From IMG/VR virus record IMGVR_UViG_3300031992_000021, positions 32,001 through 96,000 of that record: a DNA stretch of 64,000 nucleotides; one strand, given 5' to 3'. Position numbers and translations under genes: made by a program. Shown in pieces: positions 866-35,266 of the stretch (its first letter is position 1; every line of letters begins with the position of its first letter). The DNA is from a virus (Duplodnaviria > Caudoviricetes). The notes below the pieces were generated by a model. That model was not told the DNA's origin. It ran no database searches and saw only the letters and a list, made by a program, of their open reading frames with translations.

Positions 866-1660
866 TCACTGCACAGCCCAATTCGGGAGTTCAGAGAACC
901 AGCGCACAGGAGCTATCGGGTGCCACAGGGTCTTCGTCGACCCATCCTCGTGCTCTGCATCGTTGTTCATGTTCCTCAGATAGCACCACATGAGGTCCTC
1001 GTTGTCCTCCCTGAGCCAGTCGCCTGGGTGTTTTACAATGCAGGATGAGTCGACGAGCACCACGACGTTCCTGAGCTCATACCCCCAGTCGATCGTGTTC
1101 CCTATCTTGGTATACGCACGGACGTCCCACGAGCTTCCGTATCCCGTTCCAACGTACATCTTCATCTTGTCCCAGTTGTTCCCGTCTTCGGACCCCTTGT
1201 CCGCCACTTCGCTCTGGGAGTAGAACTGGAGTCGGGTCTCCTCCGTGCCGGCGGAGTGCGAGAAGTTGTTCGTGGATGCCTTCAGCTCGAACCCCGCGAA
1301 ACTGGACGACATGGACCTCCAGTAGTTTGAATACCACGAGCTCGCCGTGTGTGCAGTAACGCATCGGTACGGAGAGCCATTGTACATCACGGCGTCTCCT
1401 CTGTAGTAGTACGTGCCGGTAGAGAACTCAGGATATCCCATCGGAGGTTCCCTGTTGACCGGTATGATGAACATGGCTATCCGCCTGACCGGCGCCCTGT
1501 CGTCAACCACCCTGTCTACGTAGTTGCTGACCGCCGAAACCTTGTTCGTCACGAACGTCTCGGTGGCCATCCTCGCCGTTGCCCCGATCGTCTGAAGCGG
1601 AAGCGCCGACATGGCTGAAACTGTAAATGCGCAAAGCGCAGCTGCCTTTGTTTTTTTCAT
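866..1660 (-). CDS. Exported protein with a CBM5/12-like carbohydrate-binding module
   Basis: Basic-hydrophobic N-terminus (MKKTKAAALCAFTVSAMSALP). FSTGTYYYRGDAVMYNGSPYRCVTAHT..W is a CBM5/12-type motif. ATGA overlap with the upstream gene. Confidence 0.65.
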   Translation of the reverse strand: MKKTKAAALCAFTVSAMSALPLQTIGATARMATETFVTNKVSAVSNYVDRVVDDRAPVRRIAMFIIPVNREPPMGYPEFSTGTYYYRGDAVMYNGSPYRCVTAHTASSWYSNYWRSMSSSFAGFELKASTNNFSHSAGTEETRLQFYSQSEVADKGSEDGNNWDKMKMYVGTGYGSSWDVRAYTKIGNTIDWGYELRNVVVLVDSSCIVKHPGDWLREDNEDLMWCYLRNMNNDAEHEDGSTKTLWHPIAPVRWFSELPNWAVQ

Positions 1661-2151
1661 CTTGTCACTCCGTTTTGTTCTACGGCTATGGTCTTTACCC
1701 CGTTGCCGTCCTCAACAGTTATCTTGTGGTACAGTCCGGTAGACTCGTCCTTTGCGTACGCGTCGTCCGAGGACACTCCAGAGATCCCGTTCTGGTCGAC
1801 CGCGATCGTCTTTATACCACCGGAATCCTCTATCGCAAGCTTGTAGAATAGTCCTGTCGAGGCTTCCCTGGCGTAGAGATCTTCAGGTATTCCGCCTCCG
1901 CCTCCTCCGCCGCCATCTCCTTTCATTGAAAGCGCTTCGTCGACCGTCGTTTCGGTGAAATGCGATGGATCCCACGCCCCTGAATGCACGACTGTGCATC
2001 TGTAGAGCGTGTCCCCGCGGTACACAAGGCGCCCTTCTGAATACGCTGCCGATTCGCTGAACGTCGGCGCAAGGGCCGACTTCTCGACCTTCTGCCCGAT
2101 CGCGCTCCGGAGCATTCCGAACGCCGCTATGACTTTCTGGTATAGTGTCAT
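1657..2151 (-). CDS. Small fibre-associated protein: CBM5/12-like module, poly-Gly linker and two copies of the shared C-terminal module
   Basis: FSESAAYSEGRLVYRGDTLYRCTVVHSGAWDPSHF, a G8 linker, then YAREASTGLFYKL...VDQNG and YAKDESTGLYHKI...VEQNG. Confidence 0.7.
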   Translation of the reverse strand: MTLYQKVIAAFGMLRSAIGQKVEKSALAPTFSESAAYSEGRLVYRGDTLYRCTVVHSGAWDPSHFTETTVDEALSMKGDGGGGGGGGIPEDLYAREASTGLFYKLAIEDSGGIKTIAVDQNGISGVSSDDAYAKDESTGLYHKITVEDGNGVKTIAVEQNGVTR

Positions 2152-2167
2152 GGCGCTTCGCCCCCGG

Positions 2168-2689
2168 TCACTCCTCCGCCGCCTTCAGTATGGCCGCAAC
2201 AGTTTCGTCGTCAACGCCAAGCGCATTCTTCGCAAGGCTTACCCATGAATTGAAAAGCTCGTTGTCAGCTGAAAGGTCCTGGGACAGCGAGAACGCCTCC
2301 CATGCGTTAAGTCCGTCGACCTCCTGCGTCTGAAGCCACTCCTTCAGCTGCTGCCACTTGCCTATCTTGGACAGGGCGACGTACAGCTTGAGCTTTGAAT
2401 ATCTTGGAGGCTTGACGAAACCGGTGGCGGAGAACAGCTTGTTCGTGACCGTCCATGACCTGCCGCTCTGGACGTACGTGCAGATCATCACGCCGTTAGT
2501 CACCGTCCTCGACTGGAGCCTGCGCTGCGACGATATCGCCTCAAGCCTCCTCACGGCAGCCTTTCCGATCGCCTTCTCAAGGGAGTTGGTCGATGAAGGC
2601 GATGCCGCAAGAGACGTCACGGCCGAGAATATCGCCAGAAAGGCGGTCGCCGCCACCGATATGAAAGATCTCGCTCTTGGTGTATTCAT
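2168..2689 (-). CDS. Exported hypothetical protein
   Basis: Signal peptide (...AATAFLAIFSAVTSLA-A), GGAG SD, compact helical C-terminal domain. Confidence 0.65.
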   Translation of the reverse strand: MNTPRARSFISVAATAFLAIFSAVTSLAASPSSTNSLEKAIGKAAVRRLEAISSQRRLQSRTVTNGVMICTYVQSGRSWTVTNKLFSATGFVKPPRYSKLKLYVALSKIGKWQQLKEWLQTQEVDGLNAWEAFSLSQDLSADNELFNSWVSLAKNALGVDDETVAAILKAAEE

Positions 2690-2706
2690 GGTATTCTCCT
2701 TTTGTC

Positions 2707-3573
2707 CTAGTTTTCGATGGGTACGAGCCCGAGAAACGCTCCGTTGTCGAACAGGGCGACCACACCGGTCTCGCTGTTTGTCACCGGTCCGGTGAAAGTC
2801 GGATATGTAGCGCCGCCATCCGTTACCGTAAGAAGGTAGCTTCCGAACGCAACACCGTCAGGGCCGCCCCATTTCCCGTGCGGATTGAGGTTGCAAGGTA
2901 TGTTCCTGAGCGCCTCAGGGCGCTTCACGTAGAGCTTGTGGCACGTGTAGTGGACGTCCGCGGAACTCGTCCTGTGCAGGACTATGTCGTATGTGTTCGT
3001 GAAGTGGTCGGTCGTGTTCTTCTTCGTCCAGCTTCCTGCAACGCGGTTTGTCGTGAATCCGGACTCCCATACGTACGGAACCGTCATCGTTGGAGAATTG
3101 GTGAAGCTCTGGCCGAAATAGATGTACAGCACGTCCTCGTTGGAGGCTGAATCGTAGCTGTTTGACGCGACATAGATGTCGAACCTCCTTGACGTAAGGG
3201 GAACCACGGGAAACTGAAGAGTCACGAACCTGCCTGTCTTCGGCACGTTCGAGAGCGAAGCCCTGAGCGACTCCACTCCGTTCGAGAATCCCTGCTGCCA
3301 GGCCTTTGCGACCCTTCCTATGTTCTTCGCCGTCTCCTCCTCCGCGGCCGCGTCGGCAATCGACGCAAGAACTCTGTTCTTGTCCCTCAGCTGCCCGTCT
3401 TCAGTCTCGGTTATGACGTTCTTCTGCCACGAGAAGTTCGTCACCACTCCGGACACCGACTCCGCCACGACAGACCTTTCAGCCCCAAGCCCCGTGCCAA
3501 GTCCCTCGCCAAGCTGCGCAGACGACGCAACTGCAACGAAGGCAGCCATTGATGCGATTGCGAACCTCATCAT
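2707..3573 (-). CDS. Exported hypothetical protein (paralogue of 4403..5179)
   Basis: Signal peptide MMRFAIASMAAFVAVASSA. DGQL...N.VLAS.AD.A motif and C-terminal ALFDNGAFLG. Confidence 0.7.
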   Translation of the reverse strand: MMRFAIASMAAFVAVASSAQLGEGLGTGLGAERSVVAESVSGVVTNFSWQKNVITETEDGQLRDKNRVLASIADAAAEEETAKNIGRVAKAWQQGFSNGVESLRASLSNVPKTGRFVTLQFPVVPLTSRRFDIYVASNSYDSASNEDVLYIYFGQSFTNSPTMTVPYVWESGFTTNRVAGSWTKKNTTDHFTNTYDIVLHRTSSADVHYTCHKLYVKRPEALRNIPCNLNPHGKWGGPDGVAFGSYLLTVTDGGATYPTFTGPVTNSETGVVALFDNGAFLGLVPIEN

Positions 3574-4406
3574 TCAGCCACCTCCACCTGAAGCCTGAGA
3601 CGCCACATCGACCGTCTGTCGACCATGAATCCTGGAATTATCATGACATGCTGACCGGCTTCTGCCTCTACAGTCATGACCGATTCCCAGTGCCCTCCCC
3701 TGAACATCCTCTCAAATATAACCTGTCCAGGACCCGTCAGAGCCTCAGCTTCCACGGTGTAGGTTATCGTGGCCTTGCTTGACGTCATGACGAGCGAGTC
3801 GAATGTGATTCCACCCTCTGTCTCTATGTATACCGGCGGAAGGTCGTCGCCGACATAAATCTGCTTGTGCTCCCAGGAGTTCGTCGGTCCGAACACGTAG
3901 TACACTGTGGTCGTGGCTCCGTTGATCGTCCACCCCGAATCCATCTCTACGCCAGAAGGGAGAGCTGCCGTGTTCGCGAAGTTTGTCCATGCGTTTCTGT
4001 TGTCCTCGCGCCACCATATCTTCTGCGCAAGCTCCGAAGGGGTAAACACGGCGTTCGTGACGGAGAATGCGTAGGCGGCTATGTTCGTGCCGTGTCCGAA
4101 GTCATCTATCAACGTATCCGGCACAAGATTCGTAACCGATCCGCCGTGGGCGTATTCGGCGGCGACAAGGCCAATCTCGGGGTCGTGCCCCGTCTTGGAC
4201 ATGATGTTCTTCGATCCTCCGTACATGACGGCCATGCAGACCGAAAGCGTCACGACGATCTTCCCTACGGCGCCAAGCTCCATGAATCTCCTGTGGATGT
4301 CGGACAGGGTCCCGGAGACCATAGGCCACAGGGCGATCGCCGCGCACATTGCCGAAAGAACGGCGGCCGCACAGACAAGTGCGTACATGGCGATTCCGTC
4401 TATCAT
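3570..4406 (-). CDS. Membrane-anchored protein (two N-terminal hydrophobic helices, then YGGSK) with an extracytoplasmic beta-rich domain
   Basis: Start moved from 4460 to ATG 4406, which overlaps the upstream stop (ATGA). Two hydrophobic segments. TN-rich C-terminal region. Confidence 0.65.
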   Translation of the reverse strand: MIDGIAMYALVCAAAVLSAMCAAIALWPMVSGTLSDIHRRFMELGAVGKIVVTLSVCMAVMYGGSKNIMSKTGHDPEIGLVAAEYAHGGSVTNLVPDTLIDDFGHGTNIAAYAFSVTNAVFTPSELAQKIWWREDNRNAWTNFANTAALPSGVEMDSGWTINGATTTVYYVFGPTNSWEHKQIYVGDDLPPVYIETEGGITFDSLVMTSSKATITYTVEAEALTGPGQVIFERMFRGGHWESVMTVEAEAGQHVMIIPGFMVDRRSMWRLRLQVEVAE

Positions 4407-5179
4407 TCCGCAACCCCCACAAGAAGCCCCTTCCTGAACGTAAGCGTCTTCCCTCCCCACGAAACGACGGTTGACACCCCGTCCTTAACTCCGTTCGGAA
4501 GGTCTATAGTCGCGCCGTCGGCTATCGCGGCGTCGTTCGGTATCTTCATGTATGTGAATCCGGAGTTCGCCCTCGGAAGCCACACGTCAACGTAGTACAG
4601 GTGCGAGTATTCGTTGCCGTCTTTGTCCTCATAGGTTCCGGACTCCGCAACCGGTGCGGACACGAAGTCCTCGGCAAGGAAATCCCATTCGCTCCTCGGA
4701 ACCCCGTCGATAACCTGCGCGTAACCGACAAGCGGCTGTACGGTCTGGATGTCTTCCGTGAAGGCGAACCTCATCCTCCACTTCCTCGATTCAACGCCTT
4801 GGATCGTTCCGTTCTCTCCTGTGTCCTTGATGTCTATGACCATGACCTTCGCCGTGGCTTCGTCGAACACGACGGCCGCGTCGAAGGACGACAGCTCTAC
4901 GGAATAGAACACTATCGGAGTGCCGGCGGCAACGTTCGTCGCCACCGCGGAAAGAAGATCGACAGCCTGGTTGAAGCCGTCCCTTGCCGCGTCCTGCTCA
5001 GCCATGGCGACCTGGTTAGACGCGGCCACCTTGGCAAGATCCGCCTGCGTGGCCACTGCGTTTGTGGAGTTGAGCTTTCCGTCGTCTCCTACCATCAGCT
5101 CACGCTGTGCAGGCGGAAGTTCTGCGAATGCCTCCGAAGCCAGAGCAAGAAACGCGAATACAGCAAGTACGGATTTCAC
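4403..5179 (-). CDS. Exported hypothetical protein (paralogue of 2707..3573)
   Basis: Signal peptide MKSVLAVFAFLALASEAFA. DGKL.STNAVATQADLA motif and C-terminal LTFRKGLLVG. Confidence 0.7.
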   Translation of the reverse strand: MKSVLAVFAFLALASEAFAELPPAQRELMVGDDGKLNSTNAVATQADLAKVAASNQVAMAEQDAARDGFNQAVDLLSAVATNVAAGTPIVFYSVELSSFDAAVVFDEATAKVMVIDIKDTGENGTIQGVESRKWRMRFAFTEDIQTVQPLVGYAQVIDGVPRSEWDFLAEDFVSAPVAESGTYEDKDGNEYSHLYYVDVWLPRANSGFTYMKIPNDAAIADGATIDLPNGVKDGVSTVVSWGGKTLTFRKGLLVGVAE

Positions 5180-5421
5180 TTCGCCCCTCCGTTTCCAAAG
5201 CGATTTGAACGCTTCACTCGGAACGGGGCGTTAGGAGGACCGTTGCGCTCGCTTTCCCTGCGCCTTCTGGCCGCCTCCATCCTGGCCTTGCGCTCTTCGC
5301 GCTCTACCCACAGGATCTGGACGCGGTTCGTGAGCTGAGTCCATGCATCGACAGTTGCGATCGGGACCGCATTTGTTGGATTTGCGGCTGCGAGAGCCAC
5401 CATGAAAAGCAGGTTAGTCAT
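5176..5421 (-). CDS. Small hypothetical protein with a short hydrophobic N-terminus and a basic C-terminus
   Basis: Overlaps both neighbours in the operon. MTNLLFMVALAAA N-terminus. Confidence 0.55.
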   Translation of the reverse strand: MTNLLFMVALAAANPTNAVPIATVDAWTQLTNRVQILWVEREERKARMEAARRRRESERNGPPNAPFRVKRSNRFGNGGAK

Positions 5422-7195
5422 TCTTGTGTTCCTCCAGGTAGTTCAGCACGGAGATGTTCTCCGGCAGAAGCGCGTTTACGTTCGTGACAGGTGTCCAGTA
5501 GAGGTAGCCGGCCTTCATTTCACGCCGATACAGGCACTCTTCCTGGGCGTCCCAGATGTAGCTTGAGGTGACGGACACGACAGATCTGACGGCGTTCGTC
5601 ATCGTATCCGGCGAGAGCGACTCGGATTTCTTGGCATAATCCATCGATATCGCCTCATCGAGGGTGTTCGTACCAATCCACACGTCGTGAAGACCGTTCG
5701 TCACTCCCAAGGTGATGGTCCCGTCGCCATGCGATCTCGTCTCGGGTCCGTTTACCGTGTTGAAACCTGCCGATATCACGACTGCACGGCTGTTCGTGTT
5801 CCACGCATACGTTCCGATCGATACGGAGTCTGTGACATTGGATGCGACATGTCCGCCAAGTGCGTATGTGCGGGTTCCAAATGCCTGCGATCCATAAATG
5901 CCGAAGATGCTCGTCGGACGCCGCCCCATGCCGAGCGCGACGGAACCCGGCCCTGCGTAGCTGTTGTATCCGATGGCCAATCCGTTCTCTTCGGCTTCGG
6001 CAAGCGTTCCGATGGCCGTTCCAAGATACGCCTTTGCCTTTGCTCCAGATCCTATGGCGATCGTGTTCGTCGCCTGCGCTTCCGCAAACGTTCCGATGCC
6101 TATCGAATTGAGATCCATTGCCTTCGCAGGGCCAAGTGCGAGAGCCTGAGGTCCTGTAGCCTCGGCGAAAGCGCCGAATGCGCTTGCATAGTTGTTGGAA
6201 GAGACGGCCTTGTATCCGACGGCAGACCCCCATGAGAAGAACGCCTGCGAGAACAGGCCGCCCGCGAACGCCTCGCTTGCAAGGGAGAGGTTGTTGAATC
6301 CGAGCGCTACCGCGTAGTCGGCCTTTGCCTCGGAAGTTCCGAACGCCATTGCGAAATCTCCGTTAGCTATGGCATATGGGCCTACAGCCATGGCATGTTC
6401 GCCTTCAACGGTGCTGTCATGTCCTACAAGAATGATTCCGTCGCTAGACTCGCTCCAGGTATTGTCTCTGCCTATTATGATATTGGAATTTGTCTGCCAC
6501 TCGTCGAAGTCTTCGATCAGGAGAAGCTTTGACAGATCAGGCTTGTCTGTAAGGTCGTAATACGCGCCAGATGTAGCCACTGCTGCGAACGACGGCTTAG
6601 ATCCTATCTCGGTCCACGTGTAGCTTGGCTTGGTCTGCGCCTTCGCCCACGGGTAGATCGTTGGATCGGATTCCGTGAACGAAGTGAGCCACGGAGGGTT
6701 GTATATCGCAGAAGGAGGTATTGCGTTCGTTGGGTATGGGAGCTTGTCCTGCTTCTTAGCAAGATGAGTGTATGCACCACCTGTCGTGAATTTAGTTGTT
6801 CCGCCCGATACAGGCGTAGCGCTGTCTCCGGTATTCGCAACGTTGCCAAGATCCACGTCAGACTTCCCGATCGTCACGGAGCCGGTCTTGCCGTTTACGC
6901 TTGTCACCGGAGCCGCAGGGACTCCGCTTATCGACGAGTATGGTATTGCGTTCGTCGGATACGGAAGTTTGTCCTGCTTTGCGCCAACCTTCTCGTCAGT
7001 CTCATCCTTGGTGTAGGTGTTATCCTCGATTGATTCTATTTTTCTCAGATTAGACGAGACCTCGTCCATTATCGAGTTGCTGACCGAAGTCACCTTCCGG
7101 TCGACATATTCCCTGGAGGCGGTGACGTTCACCGCTCCGTACGATTCGATTGCCGCGAACGCCAGAATCACAGCCGACATTCTGCAGAACCTCAT
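5414..7195 (-). CDS. Tail-fibre-like adhesin with a signal peptide and YadA-head-like repeats
   Basis: Signal peptide MRFCRMSAVILAFAAIESYG. Phage fibre motifs VTSVNGKTG.V...DVDLGNV.NT and ESDPT..WAK..KPSYT..EIG..FAAVATSG.Y.DL.DKP. Many ~14-aa A.A.G..A.A repeats. No autotransporter anchor. Confidence 0.75.
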   Translation of the reverse strand: MRFCRMSAVILAFAAIESYGAVNVTASREYVDRKVTSVSNSIMDEVSSNLRKIESIEDNTYTKDETDEKVGAKQDKLPYPTNAIPYSSISGVPAAPVTSVNGKTGSVTIGKSDVDLGNVANTGDSATPVSGGTTKFTTGGAYTHLAKKQDKLPYPTNAIPPSAIYNPPWLTSFTESDPTIYPWAKAQTKPSYTWTEIGSKPSFAAVATSGAYYDLTDKPDLSKLLLIEDFDEWQTNSNIIIGRDNTWSESSDGIILVGHDSTVEGEHAMAVGPYAIANGDFAMAFGTSEAKADYAVALGFNNLSLASEAFAGGLFSQAFFSWGSAVGYKAVSSNNYASAFGAFAEATGPQALALGPAKAMDLNSIGIGTFAEAQATNTIAIGSGAKAKAYLGTAIGTLAEAEENGLAIGYNSYAGPGSVALGMGRRPTSIFGIYGSQAFGTRTYALGGHVASNVTDSVSIGTYAWNTNSRAVVISAGFNTVNGPETRSHGDGTITLGVTNGLHDVWIGTNTLDEAISMDYAKKSESLSPDTMTNAVRSVVSVTSSYIWDAQEECLYRREMKAGYLYWTPVTNVNALLPENISVLNYLEEHKND

Positions 7196-8715
7196 TTCTC
7201 CACTCCTTCCTGATCAACTCCGATGTTTACCTCGCCAGTCTCCTCGTCGGTGACGGCAAGAATCCTGTAGAACTTGCCGTCTCCCTCGTTCGGGACGAAC
7301 ACTCCGGGAACGAACGGGACGACTCCGCCGTCGGCGAGTATCGCGTCGAGCGCCCTCTCGATCTCCATTACCTTCACATACGCAGGATCTGACACGCCGA
7401 AAACCGTGAACACTCGGCCTTCGGTTGCTGATTCTACAAACCTGTACGTGACGACCTGACCTGCCGGCGCGTAAAGGGTCACGTCTCCGCCGGCGTAGTC
7501 CTTGAGGCTCGCCGACGCAAGTACGACAGGAACATCTTCCTCGGAGGATATGTTCAGGACGACATAGAAGTCCCTCGCGTTTCCTGTTCCGACGGAAGCC
7601 GGAAGTCCGAGCCTGATCGTCTTGTTTTCCGAGATGGTAGCCGTGACGACGTTTACGGTCCTGTCCTTCAGGTTGAAGAGCATCACAGTGCTGTCGCCAG
7701 ATGCCGAAGAGAGGATGTTCTCGACCCTGTACCTGATGTTCGGCTTGTTCTTGATGAACGCAGGATCCTCCGGATCCTCCTCGTTCCAGTCCGGATGGGC
7801 CTGAATCGAAGCCGCTGCGACTATCTCGTCCAGGTCGGCCTCTCTCCAGTCTTCGGCATTCCACTCTGCTCCCTGTGAGACGGCAGAGGTGCAGATGTAC
7901 AACTTGCCGCCGCGGGAACACTTGTCGCCTGCGGCATATCCGCTTTCCGACGTGTCGTACGCCTTCAGGAGCGAACTTCCTGGAAGGTATCCTGAGTCGT
8001 TCTCGAACTCGCTCAGCTTGGTCGGAAGGTCGTCCTCCGTGATGAATCCGGAGTCGTTGGTAAGCTGGCTCGTCTTGGACGGAAGCGATCCGGCAAGCTG
8101 CGCTATCCTCGTGGCGATCGAAAGCTCCACCGAAGCGTTTGTAGAGAAGATCGCAGCCGGTCCTCTTCCTGCAGTTGTGCATATCTGTAGGACGACGTCT
8201 CCAGTCTCATCGTCCCTCTTCCTGGCAAGCATCCCGACCGTGTAGTACTTGCTTCCGCTGTATGCAGGGGCGAGGTTCAGGAGCGACGCAAGGCCCTCGT
8301 TCGAGTAGGCAGACAGCATCGCGAGGATGACGTTTGCGCCAGCTGCTGTGAGGACCAGATCCCACTTTGACGGATCGAACGAAGACGAAGACGTGTGGGC
8401 GGCCTTGCACCGGTAGCCGGCTCCACCATGCTTGCAGTAGCTTCCTACTGAATATGACGTAGAGGCAGACCACGCGGACGAGTTGAACGCAGCGATCGCG
8501 TAAACTCCGTTCACGGCGTCCCAGATCGATCCGGATGCCTCCTCGACGGCAGACTCTACATCCTCCTGCGTTATGAAATCGGATGGCTTCTTGCCGCTGT
8601 CGAGAAGTGCTCCGTTAGTGCCGAACAAGGCGATATTTCCAGAGACGGCGCCAGAGGGCACTGTTGCGGCACCCTCTACGTCGCTCAAATACGCTATGTT
8701 CTCCTTCTGGGCCAT
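7192..8715 (-). CDS. Tail fibre protein with 2-3 CBM5/12-like modules
   Basis: GNIALF...G.LLDSGKK..DF, PSKTSQLTNDSGF/PTKLSEFENDSGY and DWNE.DP.DPAFIKNKP fibre motifs. CBM-like W/Y..GY.C repeats. Shared C-terminal module. Confidence 0.75.
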   Translation of the reverse strand: MAQKENIAYLSDVEGAATVPSGAVSGNIALFGTNGALLDSGKKPSDFITQEDVESAVEEASGSIWDAVNGVYAIAAFNSSAWSASTSYSVGSYCKHGGAGYRCKAAHTSSSSFDPSKWDLVLTAAGANVILAMLSAYSNEGLASLLNLAPAYSGSKYYTVGMLARKRDDETGDVVLQICTTAGRGPAAIFSTNASVELSIATRIAQLAGSLPSKTSQLTNDSGFITEDDLPTKLSEFENDSGYLPGSSLLKAYDTSESGYAAGDKCSRGGKLYICTSAVSQGAEWNAEDWREADLDEIVAAASIQAHPDWNEEDPEDPAFIKNKPNIRYRVENILSSASGDSTVMLFNLKDRTVNVVTATISENKTIRLGLPASVGTGNARDFYVVLNISSEEDVPVVLASASLKDYAGGDVTLYAPAGQVVTYRFVESATEGRVFTVFGVSDPAYVKVMEIERALDAILADGGVVPFVPGVFVPNEGDGKFYRILAVTDEETGEVNIGVDQEGVEK

Positions 8716-8790: not shown

Positions 8791-9390
8791 CTAAAGAAGG
8801 CCTTCCTGCTGAATCGCAAGGTCTACCACTCCAGTCTTCTTGTCCGTCACGGCCACAATGCGGTGCCTGAGCCCGGTCTCCGAGTTTCTCGCGTACGGAT
8901 CGTGCGAGTTCTTAATGTCCGCCGGATTCTCCTCTCCGGCCGGCGTGAACTTCTCGGACGTTCCGTCGCGATAGGGTATGGAGTGCTGATCAGACGTAGG
9001 CATGTACTCGACAAGGAAGTTTCCGGACAGCTGCGTGTCGTATGAATACCTCATCCTGTCGCTTACGCGAAGGCTGAACATGTACGATCCGCGGCGAAGG
9101 GCCTTAGTCACCTCCCTTGGAATCTTCACATGGACTAGTCCTGCGTGGTGGTCGTCAGGGTACACTCCAGACATCCACTCCCCGGTCCATATGGGAGGCG
9201 AGAACTGGTTTTCAGAGAGGACGAACTCCACATGGCTGTTCTTTGGCGAAGCCGGACCGCAGTCTGCTGCGACAAGCCTCGCGTCGACAATCCACGTGTC
9301 TCCCGACACCACCTTGAGTACAGGCATCCTGTCCTCGCTTCGGAGAGGATTGACACCTGGCGGAACGGGCTTCATTCCCTTGACGAACAT
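8791..9390 (-). CDS. Baseplate/fibre adaptor protein (BppU-N-like) with the shared C-terminal module
   Basis: Start moved to ATG 9390 (AAGGAG SD). V.SGDT...G.V.V.IP...T..L..G.Y.F.L pattern. C-terminal YARNSETGLRHRI...IQQEG. Confidence 0.55.
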   Translation of the reverse strand: MFVKGMKPVPPGVNPLRSEDRMPVLKVVSGDTWIVDARLVAADCGPASPKNSHVEFVLSENQFSPPIWTGEWMSGVYPDDHHAGLVHVKIPREVTKALRRGSYMFSLRVSDRMRYSYDTQLSGNFLVEYMPTSDQHSIPYRDGTSEKFTPAGEENPADIKNSHDPYARNSETGLRHRIVAVTDKKTGVVDLAIQQEGLL

Positions 9391-9569: not shown

Positions 9570-10184
9570 CTACGATGCTGACGAGCTCGACGAAGAGCTA
9601 GACGAAGAGCCCGACAGGTTCCTTATGCGGTCCAGGAGCACGCGAAGCGTACCCTTTACATCCTCAAGCGTATCCCCGTCCTGCACCGAGAGATCCGCAG
9701 CAAGAGCCGCCACGTCGGATTTCTTGACAAGCGACATTATTCCTCCGAGCGCGGCATCTATCATTTCGAGCTTGCCGACTACGGACTGGTCTAGCGATAT
9801 CTGTATGTACCTGCGCTCCTCGCCTGACGAGCTGTCGGTTACGTACACTTCATCGACAGAGACCTCGCCTTGGGTACCTCTAAGCGAGTTCAGCAAGTCT
9901 GCAGACCTGGACGCCGCTATTTCGGCGATCGTCTTTCCGCCAACCTTGAGCTCCCCGTCCACGTTCACGGTGTCGGCCTTAAGGTTGATGGCCTTGCCTC
10001 TACCGCCTCCCTTTGAGACTGTGAGCGTATCCCCTCCGTTCCCTCCGTAGTCGAGAACGGGGTTTTTGTCCGTTGACAGGATCCGCTTGACGAACTTCTT
10101 GTAGCGTCCGCCCTCGCGGACGTTGCCTGCCACGTCTATGAGGGCTCCTGTTGCGGAATCGACGACCAGTACAACTCTTGCCAT
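9570..10184 (-). CDS. Putative structural protein with a C-terminal poly-Ser tail
   Basis: AAGGAG SD. Directly downstream of the portal. Ends SGSSSSSSSSSSAS. Confidence 0.7.
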   Translation of the reverse strand: MARVVLVVDSATGALIDVAGNVREGGRYKKFVKRILSTDKNPVLDYGGNGGDTLTVSKGGGRGKAINLKADTVNVDGELKVGGKTIAEIAASRSADLLNSLRGTQGEVSVDEVYVTDSSSGEERRYIQISLDQSVVGKLEMIDAALGGIMSLVKKSDVAALAADLSVQDGDTLEDVKGTLRVLLDRIRNLSGSSSSSSSSSSAS

Positions 10185-12217: not shown

Positions 12218-13546
12218 TTATGCAGACCTTATCACAAGCCTGCCATCTTCCACAGATACTGCATATTCAGTTCCAGAATCCGGATCGTACACGGTCATCA
12301 CGTCTACGGGATCCGAGGACGAGCTTTCGTCGTCGGCTCCGGCGATGTACATTCTGCCGTTCGACACTCCAAGCATGTAGAGCGCACCGTTCACCGTGTC
12401 ACGAAGAAGAACCACGCTGTCCGGAGGCCTTGGCGGAGTGGCGGATCCGTCGGACACCACGAGATATCCGTACGCGTCGATCTCTATCCTGTATCCTCCG
12501 AGAGCCAGAGAGTCCATCCGCAGCTCCTTCGTGCGAACGGAATCTGCGACAACCGTCTTCGCCGTGACCGAATCGGCAACGATGTTCTTGCCGCGGTCGA
12601 AAAGTCTCTTTATGCTCTCCACCAACACCCTGTCGCGCATCCTGAGGTCGAATACGCCGAAGCTGTCTCCGCTCGAAGAGGTCTCTGACACGTCGACGAA
12701 CGACGACGAGTCGATGTCTATCCCGGAGCTGTCAGCCGTTATCTTGGAGATCCTGACCTTGCGCCGGCCAAGACGTCCGACTGCATCTTTTACGGTATCG
12801 CCCTTGACTCCGGAGGTGTTTCCGATGCGCGAGTCCTCGGACAGGAATGCGACAGTGCCGGCGTTTGTCGAATCGACGCGGCAGTCCGAAGCGATCGACA
12901 CCTTTGACCCGGAACCGACGCTGAGCTGGTGGACGTAGGTCTTTCCGATGACGACGGCGTCGGCTCCGGTGGATACCGATATCTCGCCCGCCATGTATAC
13001 GTTCTGCAGGAACAGGACCGGGCGCCTTCCTCCAGAAGCGGAGGACATGCCGTGTATCGAGAACGTCGTTATGTTAGACGCGAAAATGCAGTTTCCTGTT
13101 CCGATGAGGTATACGCTCAGAGGAGAACGTCCTGACGGGAATCTCATCTCCGTGTCTTCGTACTTGCCCGGAGCCAGCACGAACGCGACGTATTTTCCAG
13201 ACTTCGCGTCTTCGGTAGGAGAGAAGTTGGCCGCGGCCTCATCTATGCTCTTGAACGGAGCCACGACCGATCCGACCCTAAGCCTTGTGCTTCCGTCCGC
13301 CGCATATTCCTCAACGTCCGTGTACGGGTCGACGTATGCGACGTTCGACAGCGTCGGAATCGATATCTGGGCCGCCTCTGGCGGAATGAAATTCGCGTTA
13401 AGCCTTCCATTGGCGTCGAGTACCGGCAGGAAACCTTCGTATTTCGACGCATCCTCGCCTGCCGGTATGAACGATATCGCGCCCTTCACCCCAAGAGAGG
13501 CTATGATGTTTGCGGCCGTGGGAGTCTTCTGTGTTGCTTCAGCCAT
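12218..13546 (-). CDS. Tail spike/fibre-like beta-helix protein
   Basis: LPVLDANGRL...IP fibre motif. YVDP...GS..APFKSI..A...LAPG.Y (pectin-lyase/DUF1565-like start). Two C-terminal D..(N/S)G..Y...V..GR hairpins. Ser tracts. Confidence 0.6.
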   Translation of the reverse strand: MAEATQKTPTAANIIASLGVKGAISFIPAGEDASKYEGFLPVLDANGRLNANFIPPEAAQISIPTLSNVAYVDPYTDVEEYAADGSTRLRVGSVVAPFKSIDEAAANFSPTEDAKSGKYVAFVLAPGKYEDTEMRFPSGRSPLSVYLIGTGNCIFASNITTFSIHGMSSASGGRRPVLFLQNVYMAGEISVSTGADAVVIGKTYVHQLSVGSGSKVSIASDCRVDSTNAGTVAFLSEDSRIGNTSGVKGDTVKDAVGRLGRRKVRISKITADSSGIDIDSSSFVDVSETSSSGDSFGVFDLRMRDRVLVESIKRLFDRGKNIVADSVTAKTVVADSVRTKELRMDSLALGGYRIEIDAYGYLVVSDGSATPPRPPDSVVLLRDTVNGALYMLGVSNGRMYIAGADDESSSSDPVDVMTVYDPDSGTEYAVSVEDGRLVIRSA

Positions 13547-15880: not shown

Positions 15881-15918
15881 AGGGTCCTGTTCTCCTTAGA
15901 TTCTTTTGAGTTGGTAAT

Positions 15919-15947
15919 ATAATATCATTTTAGAGTTGAGGCGGCAA
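15919..15947 (-). promoter_or_regulatory. Sigma70-type promoter TTGCCG-N17-TATTAT with TG extension
   Basis: In the AT-rich divergent intergenic region upstream of 15880. Confidence 0.6.
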
Positions 15948-15958
15948 TGTCGCCTTTG

Positions 15959-15987
15959 TTGATAAATGACTGTGCGTGTGGTAGAAT
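15959..15987 (+). promoter_or_regulatory. Sigma70-type promoter TTGATA-N17-TAGAAT with TG extension
   Basis: Drives the plus-strand unit. ATG 15994 lies 6 nt after the -10 box (leaderless geometry). Confidence 0.65.
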
Positions 15988-15993
15988 ATCTGC

Positions 15994-16206: not shown

Positions 16207-16224
16207 ATTCTCAAGGAGCTCGAA

Positions 16225-16742: not shown

Positions 16743-16766
16743 GACTTGCTCCTTTTTTGTGATACA

Positions 16767-17135: not shown

Positions 17136-17159
17136 GTTCTCTTCCTCCTGTTTGGCATG

Positions 17160-20945: not shown

Positions 20946-21269
20946 CTACTTTTTGTTCCTGTAGGCCGACAGCGGCCAGTCTACCGGCAGGCACACGGTG
21001 TCTATCGCCGCCTCGCATGCAGTATCGACCCATCCGATCAGCCCAACGGGTATCGTGAACAGGTTCTCCCACATGAAGTGCTCGCCTCCCGTCGGAGACA
21101 TGATCTGCGGAAACGTCAGCACGTACGAGAAGCCGGCGGCGGTCTTTGTAGCCTGGTACACCTCGGTTATGTCCTCGTTGTCGAGAACCCTGTTCACGAA
21201 GTTCACGCATCCGCACATGAAAGACATCGATGCGCAGACGAGCATTGCGATAAGACGGAATGTTCTCAT
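20946..21269 (-). CDS. YceK/YidQ-like lipoprotein
   Basis: Lipoprotein signal ending FMCG-C. Y.AT...D...AIDT.CLP.D pattern typical of YceK/YidQ. Confidence 0.65.
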   Translation of the reverse strand: MRTFRLIAMLVCASMSFMCGCVNFVNRVLDNEDITEVYQATKTAAGFSYVLTFPQIMSPTGGEHFMWENLFTIPVGLIGWVDTACEAAIDTVCLPVDWPLSAYRNKK

Positions 21270-21685
21270 GACGCCTCCTGTTTAACGGATCCGTTACCGG
21301 TGAACTCAAGCGTCGTCTGGTCGGTGAAGTTGTCTTCACTCGTCAAAATGCTGAACGTGCGCTGAAGCCCGGATATGTCGTCCACGAAGAGCTGCTTTGC
21401 CGTAGCGAGGTCATCCAGAGACCTCACCCATACCGTGCACTTGTCCGTCCTGAACCACGGAACGGTCTCGGAGGCGGCGTCTTCCGGAATCTCATGCAGG
21501 TCCACGGGCGTTGCCACATGATCGAACTCGGCAAACGTATTTCCGTCAGCTCCAGCAGGCATCTGGTGGAACACGAAAATCTTTGTGGAGATTTTTGACG
21601 CAGAAACGACCTCAACGTGGAGGGCGTACTGAAAAACTCCGCGCCTTTCTGGAGACTGACTGAACCTTACCTTGAGTCCGCACAT
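21266..21685 (-). CDS. Hypothetical protein
   Basis: Translationally coupled ORF within the operon. Confidence 0.65.
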   Translation of the reverse strand: MCGLKVRFSQSPERRGVFQYALHVEVVSASKISTKIFVFHQMPAGADGNTFAEFDHVATPVDLHEIPEDAASETVPWFRTDKCTVWVRSLDDLATAKQLFVDDISGLQRTFSILTSEDNFTDQTTLEFTGNGSVKQEAS

Positions 21686-22299: not shown

Positions 22300-22329
22300 A
22301 TTATATCATTGTAAACGCCTTGTGCGCAA
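22300..22329 (-). promoter_or_regulatory. Promoter TTGCGC-N18-TATAAT with TG extension
   Basis: Upstream of 22252, overlapping the end of the glycosyltransferase gene. Confidence 0.6.
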
Positions 22330-27195: not shown

Positions 27196-27198
27196 GCG

Positions 27199-29150: not shown

Positions 29151-29159
29151 AAGACCCTC

Positions 29160-29900: not shown

Positions 29901-29901
29901 G

Positions 29902-31326
29902 TCACACCTCCACCGTTTTGCGCAGGATGCCAAGGCTTCCGGAACGTCCGCCTTCAGATGAATACGAAAGGCCGACGGATATCGATCCCGAGTATCCTCC
30001 AGTCGAAGCAGCTCCGACCATGTCGTTCTTCACTGACACGAACGCAATGACAAGGGACATGCCAGGCATGACCGTGAACGACTGCCCGACCAAGTCGGAA
30101 GCCGAATTTCCGGACTTCGACTTCGGGACGCCGTTCTCGTCAGACCACGACGCAGAGACCTCCGCCACTACGTCCGAACCTGCGAGCGAATACACAGTCG
30201 CCGTGACAACAGAATACGACGAGTTGCGTAGCGTTGCCGTGAACGCGCACCGCCCCATTCTGCCCTTAACTCCGGTCTCGGCAAGCTTGGGGCTAAGATT
30301 CGCGCCGACAGGCATTCCTGAAAGCGACAGCCTCACGTCAGACAGAGTTGGCCTAGAGAGTCTCTGATTGAAGCGTTTTACCGCTGCTTCGTAGTCTGAA
30401 AGATGCCTGGCAATGTCAGACCTGGCCTGCCTTACGGCGTTAGACAGCGGAACAAGCCTGTCGTTGACGATCGATTCGTACATCGCGCATGTGCAGCACG
30501 CCGTGCACTTGGCGTGAAGCTGGATATGTCCTATCCTCTTGACTACGGCGCCGTTCTCGATCACGGACTCGATCCATGGCTCTATGTCGTAGCACGTGTC
30601 GTTGAAGATCCGGGTATGTCCGTCCGGGCTCATTATGGGAGACTTCACGGACGCCACGTCTTCGCATGAGCACGGTACGGTCCCCATGCCGGCCCCAGGA
30701 ACCGCGCCGATCTGCATCCCGTTCTCATCCGGATCGGATATCAGCATGTTGTTTCCGGGAATTACGGATATGTTCCCCTTGAGGACGAAATGGGGTCCGC
30801 TAGACTTCGGGTTCACTCCGTCGAAGACCCTGATTGACGTAAGTCCTGACGGAGACTTTGCGGCGCATCTTGCGCACAGCCTCAAAAAGGCCCCGTCCCG
30901 CACCGAGGGGGAAGAGCTGCCTGGAGCGGGAGGGGAAATCGACTTTTCGGAGCAGAACGAGAGAAAGTCCCTCAATCCCTCCGACGACATTATGACGACG
31001 TACGATCCGAACGGAGCCCTTCCGCTCAGGATCGGGAATCTCGACGCTGAATCGGATATCGTGACGGACGCAGACATTCCGCCGGCGCATATCGAGAACG
31101 ACATGCGTGAATCTCCGGCCGAGAATCCGCCAATGGAAGGCCATCCGTCCTCGATGTCGGCTCCATACGCATTGACGAAGGCGTCGGCGAAGCATCTTTC
31201 CAGCAGACGCTGCGCCTCGGCGTCCAGGTCAGGGCTTCCGGAGCTCCACGCAAGCGTCTGCCCGTCCTCGAACGGGAACGGCACGAGCATGTTCCCAGAG
31301 AGATATCCGTTTCCCGCGCAGCTCAC
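29902..31326 (-). CDS. Baseplate-associated Cys-rich protein, NxxRxYP paralogue 2 (diverged)
   Basis: Start moved to GTG 31326 (GTGA overlap). YLSGNMLVPFPF. KCTACCTC followed by a coiled coil. Confidence 0.65.
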   Translation of the reverse strand: MSCAGNGYLSGNMLVPFPFEDGQTLAWSSGSPDLDAEAQRLLERCFADAFVNAYGADIEDGWPSIGGFSAGDSRMSFSICAGGMSASVTISDSASRFPILSGRAPFGSYVVIMSSEGLRDFLSFCSEKSISPPAPGSSSPSVRDGAFLRLCARCAAKSPSGLTSIRVFDGVNPKSSGPHFVLKGNISVIPGNNMLISDPDENGMQIGAVPGAGMGTVPCSCEDVASVKSPIMSPDGHTRIFNDTCYDIEPWIESVIENGAVVKRIGHIQLHAKCTACCTCAMYESIVNDRLVPLSNAVRQARSDIARHLSDYEAAVKRFNQRLSRPTLSDVRLSLSGMPVGANLSPKLAETGVKGRMGRCAFTATLRNSSYSVVTATVYSLAGSDVVAEVSASWSDENGVPKSKSGNSASDLVGQSFTVMPGMSLVIAFVSVKNDMVGAASTGGYSGSISVGLSYSSEGGRSGSLGILRKTVEV

Positions 31327-32252
31327 TGCATGGTCTTTCTCGACAGGACGTAGCTCGTTATGAACGCAGTCAGCCTGTCGCCTAGCGACGACACGTTGCC
31401 CGCGAGAGTGTTCACCGAAGTCTGCAGGTCGTTTATCGTCTGGTTTATGAAGGCGGTTTCGGCGCATCCGCAGCATGGCTTTGCGCACTCGTCGGTCATC
31501 CTGATGATGCCGCTGTCGGTGGAGACCTGGATGCAGTCGTCGCCGTCTATGACGACTTCCTCCACCGCTATGCCGTTTATCGACCTTACGAACGACTGCT
31601 CCGACACCTTGCAGTCGCATTCGTCCGTGTATCCGGAGTTCGGATCCGCGCTGACGACGAGCGCGTTTTCGTCCGGCTTGTAGTCGAACCTGATGTTTTC
31701 GCCGGCCACGAGGCTGACATCTCCGGTGAGACGGAGCGAGACGTATCCCGACGAATCCACCGCACGAAGAGACCTCACACCCGAAAGAGACGGCCTGATG
31801 CATGTCGGCTCGATCATGGCCTCGTCAGGGGAGAAGCTGTACAGTCCGTCTGGAGTGCGCTCGAAGAACTCGTCGAGGTCCCCGAGGCACACCACGCCTC
31901 TTGCGTCCACGAACGAACCGGTTCCCGATACGTGGTAGGCGCCGTTCTTCTCGTGTCCGGCCGATGTCGCATAGACCGACATCACCCTGTCGCCGTTCCT
32001 GTCGCAGAACACGAGCGTGACGCTCCCGGAAACCACAGACATCTGTCCGAGGTACAGGAACGGATCCATGTTCGACCCGTCTACAGCCACGGACATGTCC
32101 ACCAGAAGGCAGTTCGGAAGCGTCCATCCGCCATCGACAACCGTGCCGGCGTAGTCGTTCGGCCTCAATCCGCAGCCCTCGTGGAACGGGTACTCGCGGA
32201 GCGAGTTCTCGTTCAGCCATCCAGTGGCTATTGGATTTGAAGATGCAGACAT
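31323..32252 (-). CDS. Baseplate-associated Cys-rich protein, NxxRxYP paralogue 1
   Basis: WLNENSLREYPF. VRSING. ECAKPCCGC followed by a coiled coil. Confidence 0.7.
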   Translation of the reverse strand: MSASSNPIATGWLNENSLREYPFHEGCGLRPNDYAGTVVDGGWTLPNCLLVDMSVAVDGSNMDPFLYLGQMSVVSGSVTLVFCDRNGDRVMSVYATSAGHEKNGAYHVSGTGSFVDARGVVCLGDLDEFFERTPDGLYSFSPDEAMIEPTCIRPSLSGVRSLRAVDSSGYVSLRLTGDVSLVAGENIRFDYKPDENALVVSADPNSGYTDECDCKVSEQSFVRSINGIAVEEVVIDGDDCIQVSTDSGIIRMTDECAKPCCGCAETAFINQTINDLQTSVNTLAGNVSSLGDRLTAFITSYVLSRKTMQ

Positions 32253-35200
32253 TACCTTACGACGCCTTCCTGGTCGACCTCGAGACTGGTCTGACCGTCA
32301 ACTGTGCTGGCAGTCACCTCGTGGTATAGTCCGGTATCCTTGTCTCTCGCATAGAGGTCTGACGGAATCCTCGGAACCGCACCATAGTCGTCGAGAGACA
32401 CGAGAGACCACGAAAGGTTGATAAACCCTATCCCATGCGTGTAAGGCTCCTCATCCTCGGCCTGCATGACGGCTCTCGATATGCGAACCCCGACAAGGTA
32501 TCCGGGCCTCAGCTCCGGTGATATCTCCTGGACGGCGAAATCTGCCGCCGAAGGCAGGCTCTTTCCGAGCACCTTGGCTATCACGTCGTCCTTATCGACG
32601 AGGCTCTTGTCGTCCGTAGTTATGAACACCGGGTCGAAGCCGTTGTACTCTATTCCTCCGTCGGCAGGATGCCCGAACGGGATGAGAACCGTGCGTTCGC
32701 TGTCCGGCTTGAGAAGCGACGTCTTGAGGTTCCTGTACATCATGCCCTCGCCCGCGGAGAAGTCCGGAAGTATGTTGTAGGCGAACTTGATGCACGCGGA
32801 GCGCTTCGACTGTCCTGTGAATCCAGTCTCTCCGAACACGGAAGCAGACACCATGAGCGCGTACTTTCCGTCCGGAAGGTTCGTCGGGACGCGCATCGTG
32901 GCCGTGAATGCGGACGGCGATGCGATCGTGCTGCCGGAGTATCCTCTGAGCCTGATGTACGGAAACATTCCGATCTTCGCCTGCTCGGAGTTCTCGAGCG
33001 CGATGTCCGTGAACTGGTTCCTGTAGGCTCCGTTGTCGAGCGCGATGACAACCGTACCCTGTCCGTCAGGGCAGCCGGCTCTCGATATGACGCTCACGCC
33101 GGCGCCGCCGACAATCCTCTCGACGACTGGGCCGGCTATCAGCACTCCGTCACGGGTGCGCTTGGGCACGTTGAAGCCAGGCGCACCGCCGTTCTCAAGC
33201 CTGAAGTCGAACTCGGCGGCCAGCTCAAGGTCTCCGGTATTTGCGTCGCCGTCAGTTCCGTATCCGTACACCTTCAGAGGAGATCCGGCACGGACCTGGA
33301 GCGACGTCACAGGGCCTGTCGCACCCTGGAATCCGCGAACCCAGTGCATGACCTGCGTCTTGTCGTATGCGGGATCGATCTTGGCGCCCCTCCTGACAAA
33401 GCCCTCCGGCCACGGCTTCTTGCCTCTTTCGGAAGAAAACCAGTGTATGGTGTCCCTGCAGAACGAAACGGTCGGGCTGTCCTTGAGGATGGCCTTGTTG
33501 TCCATCTCTACGCCGTTCACGATGAGCGCGGCGGATTTCGGAGGAACCGGCGGCCAGTAGTTGGCGATCTTCGGATCCATTCCGATCACGTAGTCAAACA
33601 GCGACTCCGGCTCGTAGTCGGTGACGACTCCGGAAACAACCGTTCCCGATCCGACAGACACGCTTCCTTCGCTGTGCTGATGCACGAGCAGGTTGAGGCG
33701 TCCGTCTTCCCTTGCGCTTTTCCACACATAGGAAGAGATGTCTTCGACGATCGGTCCGTCGCTGAGAACCCTCCCGTTTCCGTCGTGCACGACAGACTTT
33801 ATGCCTGTCGCTCCTTTTACCGTGAAATCGCTTCCTTCGACGATTTCAGGATCGGACGTTATGATCGTTCCGTCTACCGAAACCCTTTCGGTGTCGTCGT
33901 ATCCGATGACGAGCAGCTTCGCCGAATTTCCGGAGTTGCTTTCATGTACGGCGAACGAAACGACATCGTCGTTCGGATTGTCCTTTGAAAGAGCCTCAAC
34001 GAGGAACAGGACCGAGTCTGCAAGGCATGTGCCTATTGCAACCGGGGTATTCTCTCCTGAGTACGCGGATGTGTCAGCCGTAAATTCATACGTCTTGCCG
34101 CCGAACGAGAACTCGTCTCCGTCTGAAATCGACGCTATGGAACAGATCTGAAGCACATCGGGGAACACGACCTTCACAGAGGTGCGTATGGAATCGAACC
34201 TGCCTCTGATGGATACCGTCACGCCGCTGCCGTCTCCGGCAATTCCTCTTGCCTCGTGGTCAAGCCATCCCCTGCCGGCCTCTGGAAACACGAGGTCCTC
34301 CCAGGTCCTCTGGTTTGCCGACAGATTGGAGTATGCGTTTGACGGGCCCGAAGCCGGCAGAGAGAGCCTTGCGGTGAGCCCGTTTGAAATCTTGACCTCC
34401 TCGTCAGGAGCGTGGATCTGCACCTTGAAGCTTTCCGACTCCTTGCCGTTCTCCCTCCAGCGAAGGACGACACCTGTAGGCCAGTCTGCGGAACTCTGGT
34501 CTAGGTAGAAGGAATATGAAACTTCCTTGTCTGAAGTCCATGTTCCGCCGAACCTAAGCGCCAGAGGGCCTACCTGCGCGTCTGAGAAAGTCTCGTCTAT
34601 CGGCAGATAGCCGGCTGTCGACTTTGTGCCTGCCGGGCGTGCGGTCAGCACCGCGGTCCTGTGGATGTGGGACGTGCCGATGTCGAGGAACTGAGGTGAC
34701 ACGATCGCCATTCCGTCGAATCCTCCAGAAACGACACCTCCCGATATCGTGCAGACGTAGATGAGCGGACCGTTCGGGTCTGCCGTCAGCCTTCCGGCCT
34801 CGTTTGCGGAAAGATAGTACCTTCCAGGACGGTACTTCTCTCCGGATTCCAGCATGTTCGACACCATGAACGGCGAACCGCCCGGATTGAGGTTCAGGCT
34901 TCCGTACACGATCACATTGCCGGTACTTCCGCTCTTGGACTGAAGAATCCCCACCGTAAATGCAGAATCGGCGGCCTTGAAGTCGTCGTACAGGCTCATC
35001 GTTGCCTTGGCCGCGGCAAACCTCTGGGTCTCGCTGTCGAGATAGACCACGTTGCCGACATCGGGTTCCTTGCCGGTGTCAGTCGACAGATTGACTCCGG
35101 TAAGAATGACAGACGACATCTTTCCGCTCGCCAGAAGCTCCTTCAGCCTTGCGTACAGGTACGAAGTCCTGTCGCCAAGCTGTCCTATTGGCACGTTGAG

Positions 35201-35266
35201 CGTGTCTGCGTCAAGACTGTCCCCGTTCGAGAACTTCTTAAGCTGCGACCACATCTCCTTAGACAT
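32252..35266 (-). CDS. Large baseplate/proximal tail-fibre protein with the shared C-terminal module
   Basis: NGD..DA..LN.PI.QL..RT.YL fibre-attachment N-terminus. PG.YYLS...AG.LT..P. Ends YARDKDTGLYHEV...VDQEGVVR. Confidence 0.7.
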   Translation of the reverse strand: MSKEMWSQLKKFSNGDSLDADTLNVPIGQLGDRTSYLYARLKELLASGKMSSVILTGVNLSTDTGKEPDVGNVVYLDSETQRFAAAKATMSLYDDFKAADSAFTVGILQSKSGSTGNVIVYGSLNLNPGGSPFMVSNMLESGEKYRPGRYYLSANEAGRLTADPNGPLIYVCTISGGVVSGGFDGMAIVSPQFLDIGTSHIHRTAVLTARPAGTKSTAGYLPIDETFSDAQVGPLALRFGGTWTSDKEVSYSFYLDQSSADWPTGVVLRWRENGKESESFKVQIHAPDEEVKISNGLTARLSLPASGPSNAYSNLSANQRTWEDLVFPEAGRGWLDHEARGIAGDGSGVTVSIRGRFDSIRTSVKVVFPDVLQICSIASISDGDEFSFGGKTYEFTADTSAYSGENTPVAIGTCLADSVLFLVEALSKDNPNDDVVSFAVHESNSGNSAKLLVIGYDDTERVSVDGTIITSDPEIVEGSDFTVKGATGIKSVVHDGNGRVLSDGPIVEDISSYVWKSAREDGRLNLLVHQHSEGSVSVGSGTVVSGVVTDYEPESLFDYVIGMDPKIANYWPPVPPKSAALIVNGVEMDNKAILKDSPTVSFCRDTIHWFSSERGKKPWPEGFVRRGAKIDPAYDKTQVMHWVRGFQGATGPVTSLQVRAGSPLKVYGYGTDGDANTGDLELAAEFDFRLENGGAPGFNVPKRTRDGVLIAGPVVERIVGGAGVSVISRAGCPDGQGTVVIALDNGAYRNQFTDIALENSEQAKIGMFPYIRLRGYSGSTIASPSAFTATMRVPTNLPDGKYALMVSASVFGETGFTGQSKRSACIKFAYNILPDFSAGEGMMYRNLKTSLLKPDSERTVLIPFGHPADGGIEYNGFDPVFITTDDKSLVDKDDVIAKVLGKSLPSAADFAVQEISPELRPGYLVGVRISRAVMQAEDEEPYTHGIGFINLSWSLVSLDDYGAVPRIPSDLYARDKDTGLYHEVTASTVDGQTSLEVDQEGVVR

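Follow-up and report, generated by a model that had tools for sequence, protein, structure and literature searches.

A C-terminal module on four otherwise dissimilar proteins of a large uncultured phage, one of several putatively interchangeable end cassettes

The DNA analysed here (the window) is a stretch of 64,000 nucleotides, positions 32001-96000 of one 162,950-bp virus contig (IMG/VR record IMGVR_UViG_3300031992_000021; genome G000). Proteins were labelled A (1657..2151), B (5414..7195), C (7192..8715), D (8791..9390), E (12218..13546) and F (32252..35266), and every gene discussed below is encoded on the minus strand. Proteins A, C, D and F carry a module of about 37 residues at their C-termini, twice in A and once in each of the others. 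Judged by sequence comparison, the module belongs to a set of apparently interchangeable end cassettes, borne by fibre and baseplate-periphery proteins of the virion, in a clade of large uncultured phages. The carriers, the module copies and protein E, for which related endings had been suggested, are as follows.

1657..2151, minus strand: carrier A, 164 residues, with an N-terminal helix, a CBM5/12-like motif (Pfam CBM_5_12 E 0.066), a Gly8 linker and two tandem modules.
1780-1890, minus strand: module A1, residues 88-124, short subtype; 54 bits by the family hidden Markov model (HMM), leave-one-out domain E 3e-11.
1660-1773, minus strand: module A2, residues 127-164 at the protein end, short subtype; HMM 64 bits, leave-one-out domain E 4e-14.
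7192..8715, minus strand: carrier C, 507 residues, fibre-like, with a CBM_5_12 domain (Pfam E 3.6e-6) and a PHROG tail-fibre match.
7195-7311, minus strand: module C, residues 469-507, long subtype; HMM 54 bits, leave-one-out domain E 4e-4.
8791..9390, minus strand: carrier D, 199 residues, with an immunoglobulin (Ig)-like N-terminal core of about 145 residues, an acidic linker and one module.
8797-8907, minus strand: module D, residues 162-198, long subtype; HMM 55 bits, leave-one-out domain E 1e-8.
32252..35266, minus strand: carrier F, 1004 residues, conserved in phages of 150-210 kb; its core ends ...GFINLSWSLVS and is followed by the module.
32255-32368, minus strand: module F, residues 967-1004, short subtype; HMM 56 bits, leave-one-out domain E 2e-6.
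12218..13546, minus strand: protein E, 442 residues, with two E-type hairpins (12320-12427 and 12221-12310) in its own C-terminal core, which are not module copies.

The five core copies named in an earlier sequence-only reading were all present on translation, and each was regained by leave-one-out HMMs run on the six-frame translation of the whole genome (262,889 residues), with domain E values from 4e-4 to 4e-14. No sixth copy was detected when the HMMs were run against the six-frame translations of the window and the genome. With a family HMM made from 183 unique instances the five copies reached 54-64 bits, whereas 20 residue-shuffled proteomes yielded no more than 8.6 bits, so that the alignment stands against shuffled controls. 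The copies end close to the stop, as had been stated, with 3, 3, 2 and 3 residues (VTR, VEK, LL and VVR) after the final G of the motif. The carriers are also dissimilar outside the module: once the modules were removed, only a weak CBM5/12-like motif was common to A, C and the protein at 866..1660. Three copies (A1, A2 and F) form a short subtype with 41-51% identity and two (C and D) a long subtype with 39% identity, while identity across the subtypes is 8-29%.

Looser variants had also been proposed at the ends of E (two sites) and B, and these did not hold, as neither HMM gave any match there even at E<=10. Protein E ends in a motif of its own, l-x-D-x-x-tG-x-x-Y-x-l-x-V-x-nG-r-L-v-i, which is present twice and is kept in the orthologue of the closest complete relative, G001 (181,382 bp). 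In hhalign profile-profile comparison this hairpin paired only with the first hairpin of the module, over 17 columns and with a probability of 49%.

The profile of the five copies was searched against 1.84 billion cluster representatives and matched 78 proteins at E<=1e-3, about 60 of which were true carriers, mostly between 68 and about 650 residues long, with a few above that length. The module usually forms the end of a true carrier (0-5 residues after it) and is single, double or triple, repeating every 39-47 residues. The consensus of the family HMM is EIPKDLYVRDESTGLYHKLVAVTDEDGEVTLGVEQEGVSR, and the unit of about 37 residues follows the pattern Y-x-R-[DN]-x-x-T-G-L-Y-H-K-[IL]-x-A...D-x-x-G-E-x-x-[IL]-G-V-[ED]-Q-E-G-V-x-[KR], in which the G, H and G positions are near-invariant; the motif is strongly conserved over about 60 clusters at 50% identity. 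The five-copy profile thus finds a wider family, and no Pfam family covers the module in the 50 carriers searched, among which CBM_5_12 was the sole recurrent Pfam family (15 of 50). The module was also unmatched in a search of NCBIfam, and a search of the PDB gave no established match, the only hit being a weak composite match to the designed beta-trefoil 4ow4. By these searches the module is an unannotated sequence family, belonging to a kind of element (the swappable end domain) that is already known.

Other leads were followed without adding members. The family PF24243 (Phage_tail_C), suggested by a protein atlas with a score of 0.79 that is at chance level, gave no genome match at E<=1. 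A Peptidase_S74 chaperone was rejected, as no Pfam match to it was obtained on the window carriers (E<=0.1) or among the 50 carriers, and the module measures about 37 residues against about 150. When the A-family alignment was used as a query for related loci, only CBM-type matches were returned and no module. A scan of viral contigs with the back-translated motif D-x-x-TGLYHK picked up five sites, all of them chance matches, and in IMG/VR the module was present in one of ten related contigs. A sequence look-up with D in other DNA stretches gave no similar region.

Endings were then compared among orthologues, with 120 listed relatives each for F and D. The shared core of F relatives ends ...GFINLSW-x-LVS, and the C-terminal additions vary after that point: 56 of the 120 have no tail (stop within 12 residues of the core), 32 carry an ending here called tail c, 15 carry the module, 12 carry another ending (tail d) and five carry module remnants with internal deletions. 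Relatives of D are laid out as a conserved N-terminal core of about 145 residues, a low-complexity linker and one of several endings. One module was found in 58 of them and three modules in nine, and the remaining 53, in which the HMM detected no module, end in nothing or an acidic stub, in tail c, in an E-type hairpin or in a whole fibre several hundred residues long; a few of these 53 bear degenerate or truncated remnants of the module. Orthologues of A carry one or two modules. In three-copy orthologues of D the triple is stably kept at about 65% overall protein identity. All families examined (D, F, C and E) keep their N-terminal part and vary at the C-terminus; the usual layout of a fibre is an N-terminal anchor and a distal C-terminus.

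Two further observations were made on D. Its Ig-like core of about 145 residues serves as an N-terminal chassis that in some relatives bears whole fibres of 200-340 residues or a PF13306 domain (relatives with such large endings: P0298, P0319, P0325, P0330 and P0350). In the three-copy orthologues P0233-P0239 a cysteine stands at the same position in copies 1 and 2 (GEVCLGIYQ) and not in copy 3, and the pair may form an inter-module disulfide or a metal site.

The relative G001 illustrates the exchange within one genome. Its F orthologue is 54% identical to F and bears tail c, its C orthologue is also without the module, and the module is found instead on the D orthologue and on the E orthologue, where it follows the E core and a Ser-rich linker. 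Tail c is present as well on the G001 orthologue of a further window protein, with 52% identity between the two G001 tails over a stretch of 50 residues (E 1e-15).

21266..21685, minus strand: 139-residue protein without a tail in the window; its G001 orthologue carries tail c.

Tail c appears to be a second mobile end cassette of about 50 residues, helical, with the consensus ...KVDKDALAG...GIR-x-AV...LGA-x-V, also given as ...KVDKDALAG...GIREAV...LGAKVVK, and stands where the beta module stands in other proteins. It was located in G001 (L015-L024) at 14796-17915 and 930-1547, and in the D-family proteins P0284, P0321, P0327, P0337 and P0349. In pairwise comparison each module had most of its nearest neighbours on orthologues of its own carrier. 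Cross-carrier cases were also found, such as the module on the G001 E orthologue, which shares 69% identity with modules of the F and D families. These comparisons indicate that the module has been gained, lost, duplicated (zero to three copies), allowed to decay and exchanged between carriers that retain their N-terminal parts.

Structure prediction was performed with AlphaFold2 on P0156, a three-copy orthologue of D (alignment of 43 sequences), and on the monomer of A, which has two copies (14 sequences). The N-terminal core of P0156 was predicted as a confident beta sandwich with predicted local distance difference test (pLDDT) values above 90, and the module region (170-294) reached 82-95. 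Each unit in this model consists of three strands, about 5, 8-9 and 5-10 residues long, plus a one-residue bridge, in agreement with the small beta-meander that had been proposed from the sequence. The modules of A were given pLDDT values of 30-45. Unit counts in further proteins were three in P0185, two times three in P0184 and three times three in P0160, the last with an a-b-c super-repeat of about 117 residues, and these counts fit three units per domain. Searches with the three-copy model by Foldseek and VIA-align returned matches that were taken up by the Ig-like core, so that the module domain was barely probed, and phmmer of P0156 against the PDB gave no match.

The carrier P0205 has collagen G-x-y tracts, then the short helix IEEALDDILAGQG, then the module; the same helix stands directly ahead of the terminal module in C, as IERALDAILADGG. 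Collagen G-x-y tracts form an obligate triple helix, and the module therefore ends three-chain fibres in at least some carriers. The earlier description of a C-terminal oligomerisation module can be kept as to position, the module lying at the end of fibre-like proteins, and the module is probably oligomeric.

With moderate confidence, we favour a reading in which three modules together make up a small beta domain, and trimeric fibres are closed by it at their distal, C-terminal end in the manner of a foldon. The unit would be a predicted three-stranded beta module of about 37 residues; three such modules would pack into one compact small domain, being supplied either by three chains with one copy each or by one chain with three tandem copies. 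Like the foldon of T4 fibritin, this domain would close the fibre distally and keep its chains in register, and it would be exchangeable, a phage lineage swapping it with other end cassettes. Because it would be exposed at the fibre tip, the end-cap may also touch the host surface.

Several points weigh against this reading. Many orthologues of F and D are tailless, so these carriers need no end-cap to fold. The module of D stands on a low-complexity linker and not on a shaft, and the two-copy proteins, which are common, fit only if their carriers are trimers. The difference in confidence between the three-copy and two-copy models is confounded by alignment depth (43 against 14 sequences), and the packing of three modules into one domain is deduced from the pLDDT values and the repeat counts. 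No sequence similarity to the foldon was detected: PF07921 (Fibritin_C) had no match in the six-frame genome at E<=10, and the PDB profile search returned no fibritin chain at E<=10.

A bolder extension, which we offer tentatively and consider unlikely, is that a single module supplies a third of a domain, and that orthologues of D build the same pseudo-threefold beta domain from three chains or from one. If so, the one-copy and three-copy orthologues of D would be a natural snapshot of symmetric repeat folds arising from oligomers. As four proteins of this phage would carry compatible thirds, mixed trimers that tie different virion proteins together would be possible, and these would rescue a form of the docking idea considered below.

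The module could alternatively be an autonomous surface-binding domain, adhesin- or lectin-like, a small accessory element on various exposed virion proteins that binds weakly to host or mucus glycans, in the way described for phage Ig-like domains and CBMs, with its copy number tuning avidity. Its sporadic presence among orthologues, distal C-terminal position and variable copy number would suit such a role, as would the co-occurrence of CBM_5_12 in 15 of the 50 carriers and the filling of the same slot in other D orthologues by whole fibres or by a leucine-rich-repeat domain (precomputed Pfam PF13306). A weak, sub-threshold likeness to lectin-type beta-trefoils was also seen: in the PDB profile search the designed Phifoil 4ow4 reached a summed E of 5e-4 from three matches of about 7 bits to one hairpin, and CDtoxinA reached E 0.027, short of its cut-off. 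The remaining multi-stretch matches of the module profile were repeats of about 58 residues in which only the first hairpin matched, at 2-9 bits. The first-hairpin motif is therefore generic, matching unrelated propeller-like repeats by chance, and the beta-trefoil lead was downgraded. Were the module a single trefoil subdomain completed by trimerisation, four strands would be expected in each unit of about 40 residues, with three units to a domain; the AlphaFold2 model has three clear strands and a one-residue bridge per unit, and the unit counts fit three per domain. Moreover, 37 residues are too few for an independent binding domain, and two carriers can bear either the beta module or the helical cassette in one and the same place, which points to a structural role and not to a ligand-specific one. 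An independent adhesin is on balance doubtful, although surface binding is compatible with the foldon-like end-cap if the assembled trimer is the binding unit.

The idea that the module docks proteins to one another involves F and its surroundings. F may reasonably be called a baseplate-block protein from its gene context, as it lies three genes downstream of a Baseplate_J-like gene.

37639..39300, minus strand: Baseplate_J-like wedge gene (Pfam PF04865, E 9e-11), which marks a baseplate and fibre block around F.

F itself had no match in Pfam, PHROG, NCBIfam or the PDB, a PDB profile search with the F family was likewise without a match, and no relative of the 1004-residue protein was found in the phage collection that was searched. 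In the docking interpretation, proteins with the same cassette would be joined through it, for example as mixed trimers or as fibres tied to F or to each other. It is favoured by the presence of a cassette on at least two proteins of one genome in three of three cases (the module on four proteins in G000 and on two in G001, and tail c on two in G001) and by the F module of G000, which shares the short subtype with the two A modules (41-42% identity). There is also a precedent in T4 fibritin, the C-terminal part of which nucleates trimerisation and mediates long-tail-fibre attachment (PMC3797505). The orthologues speak against it. F is without the module in 105 of the 120 listed relatives, five of these having decayed remnants, while other proteins keep it. 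In G001, as described, E and D orthologues have the module and the F orthologue a different tail. Tail d is a singleton in each of the four genomes in which a second copy was sought (G003, G004, G005 and G008). The modules of G000 are 8-51% identical and mostly track the orthologues of their own carriers, with no homogenisation within the genome.

Co-variation of the F and D endings was compared in nine genomes, and the tail types matched in three, against 2.3 expected by chance; seven of the nine pairs assume one shared contig, inferred from equally long longest contigs, the other two being G000 and G001. Written as (F, D) with b for the module, the pairs were (b,b), (c,b), (none,b x3), (c,b x3), (c,none), (b,b), (c,fibre), (b,other) and (c,c). 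One phage thus has a tailless F and a D with three modules, by inferred pairing. The evidence is against an obligatory coupling of fibres to F by the module: the claim that it joins the fibres to this baseplate protein does not agree with its presence in only 15 of 120 F relatives, nor with the other tail on F in G001. The suggestion that the two-copy, 164-residue protein A is a branching adaptor is weakened because its orthologues vary between one and two copies. Hetero-association through the module is, in sum, quite unlikely, and orthologues should be checked before a terminal peptide common to several fibre proteins is taken as evidence of a docking network.

That the module has no function of its own, being the remnant of a linker or a hitch-hiker of recombination that mosaic exchange of fibre genes has spread, would account for frequent loss and internally deleted remnants but is highly improbable given the strong conservation of the motif with its near-invariant G, H and G across about 60 clusters, the stable retention of the triple in D-type orthologues and the confident three-copy AlphaFold2 model.

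The foldon-like end-cap has its closest known counterpart in T4 fibritin (gpWac). As in the foldon, the unit is small, of beta structure, about 30-40 residues long and at the extreme C-terminus, with a helical or coiled segment ahead of it. Fibritins keep their N-terminus and shaft and have a C-terminal domain in eight swapped forms, among them the two-foldon form of JS98 and the RB43 type with one or three Ig domains (PMC3797505). The carriers here resemble them in their conserved N-terminal parts and swapped C-terminal domains, and tandem duplication and one versus three copies occur in both. The module differs from the foldon in having three strands rather than one hairpin and an unrelated sequence, and its trimerisation is putative, unlike that of the foldon. 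Also unlike fibritin, the same module is carried by four unrelated proteins of one phage, and many orthologues are without any end domain.

In P22-like tail needles, the tip of gp26 and the knob of Sf6/HS1 are alternative distal tips on a conserved trimeric carrier, and the tip can be replaced with partial function by the foldon, which is used as a trimer nucleation domain (PMC3741392). The likeness lies in a conserved carrier with wholly different C-terminal tips in related phages. Unlike the module, the needle tips comprise 90-140 residues, have known folds and occur on one carrier only.

Phage Ig-like domains and CBMs are also sporadic among orthologues, present on unrelated proteins of one virion, often C-terminal and variable in copy number. 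The original survey of promiscuous phage Ig-like domains is reportedly that of Fraser et al. (2006). T4 Hoc is an example of Ig-like accessory domains on phage virion proteins (PMC10385173). In contrast to an Ig domain, the module is one third the size, with probably three copies per domain, and any binding by it is putative. A further comparison is with branched receptor-binding-protein systems. The anchors of these systems are the conserved N-terminal parts of tailspikes and fibres and are required for attachment. Like the docking domains of such systems, the module is a short sequence common to several otherwise unrelated proteins of one phage; unlike those anchors, it is C-terminal and optional and does not co-vary with its proposed partner. 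What is unusual is the occurrence of one cassette on four unrelated proteins of one virion, with orthologues that have zero, one, two or three copies.

Further observations were made on neighbouring genes. Five proteins of the fibre operon (window 866-1660, 2168-2689, 2707-3573, 4403-5179 and 5414-7195) have hydrophobic, signal-peptide-like N-termini, which are not present on the module carriers A, C, D and F. The last of the five, the 593-residue protein B, contains YadA-head repeats (Pfam E 2.6e-15), as in trimeric autotransporter adhesins. A 204-residue protein with a C-terminal run of ten serines (window 9570-10184) adjoins a 602-residue gene (10200-12008), for which identity between G000 and G001 is 85%. 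An RNA-polymerase-beta-like protein (window 17160-19049; phrog_3015, E 5e-16) lies within the structural block, and its G001 orthologue (172628-175687) has 1019 residues with an insertion of about 385 residues between halves that are each about 84% identical to the window protein. A Stealth_CR2-like protein (window 22306-24465; Pfam E 8.6e-7, below cut-off) is a tandem duplicate in G001 (2161-5082 and 5116-7548), with longer N-termini. Three neighbouring paralogues of 287-326 residues lie at genome positions 30091-32881, the last of them being window 3-881, and are 48-51% identical in their C-terminal 65-69 residues. Immediately downstream of F, two long minus-strand open reading frames (window 29902-31803 and 31323-32252) overlap by about 480 bases in different frames.

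Almost no gene of the block could be named with PHROGs and NCBIfam. In large uncultured phages with so few nameable structural genes, the module marks the ends of fibre and baseplate-periphery proteins, and is a handle for finding their receptor-binding proteins. Should the module prove to be a compact unit that closes trimers and is distinct from the foldon, it may offer an alternative trimerisation tag for protein engineering. If three modules do form the same domain from three chains or from one, the evolution of repeat folds could be studied in a natural test case, the orthologues paired by one copy and three copies.

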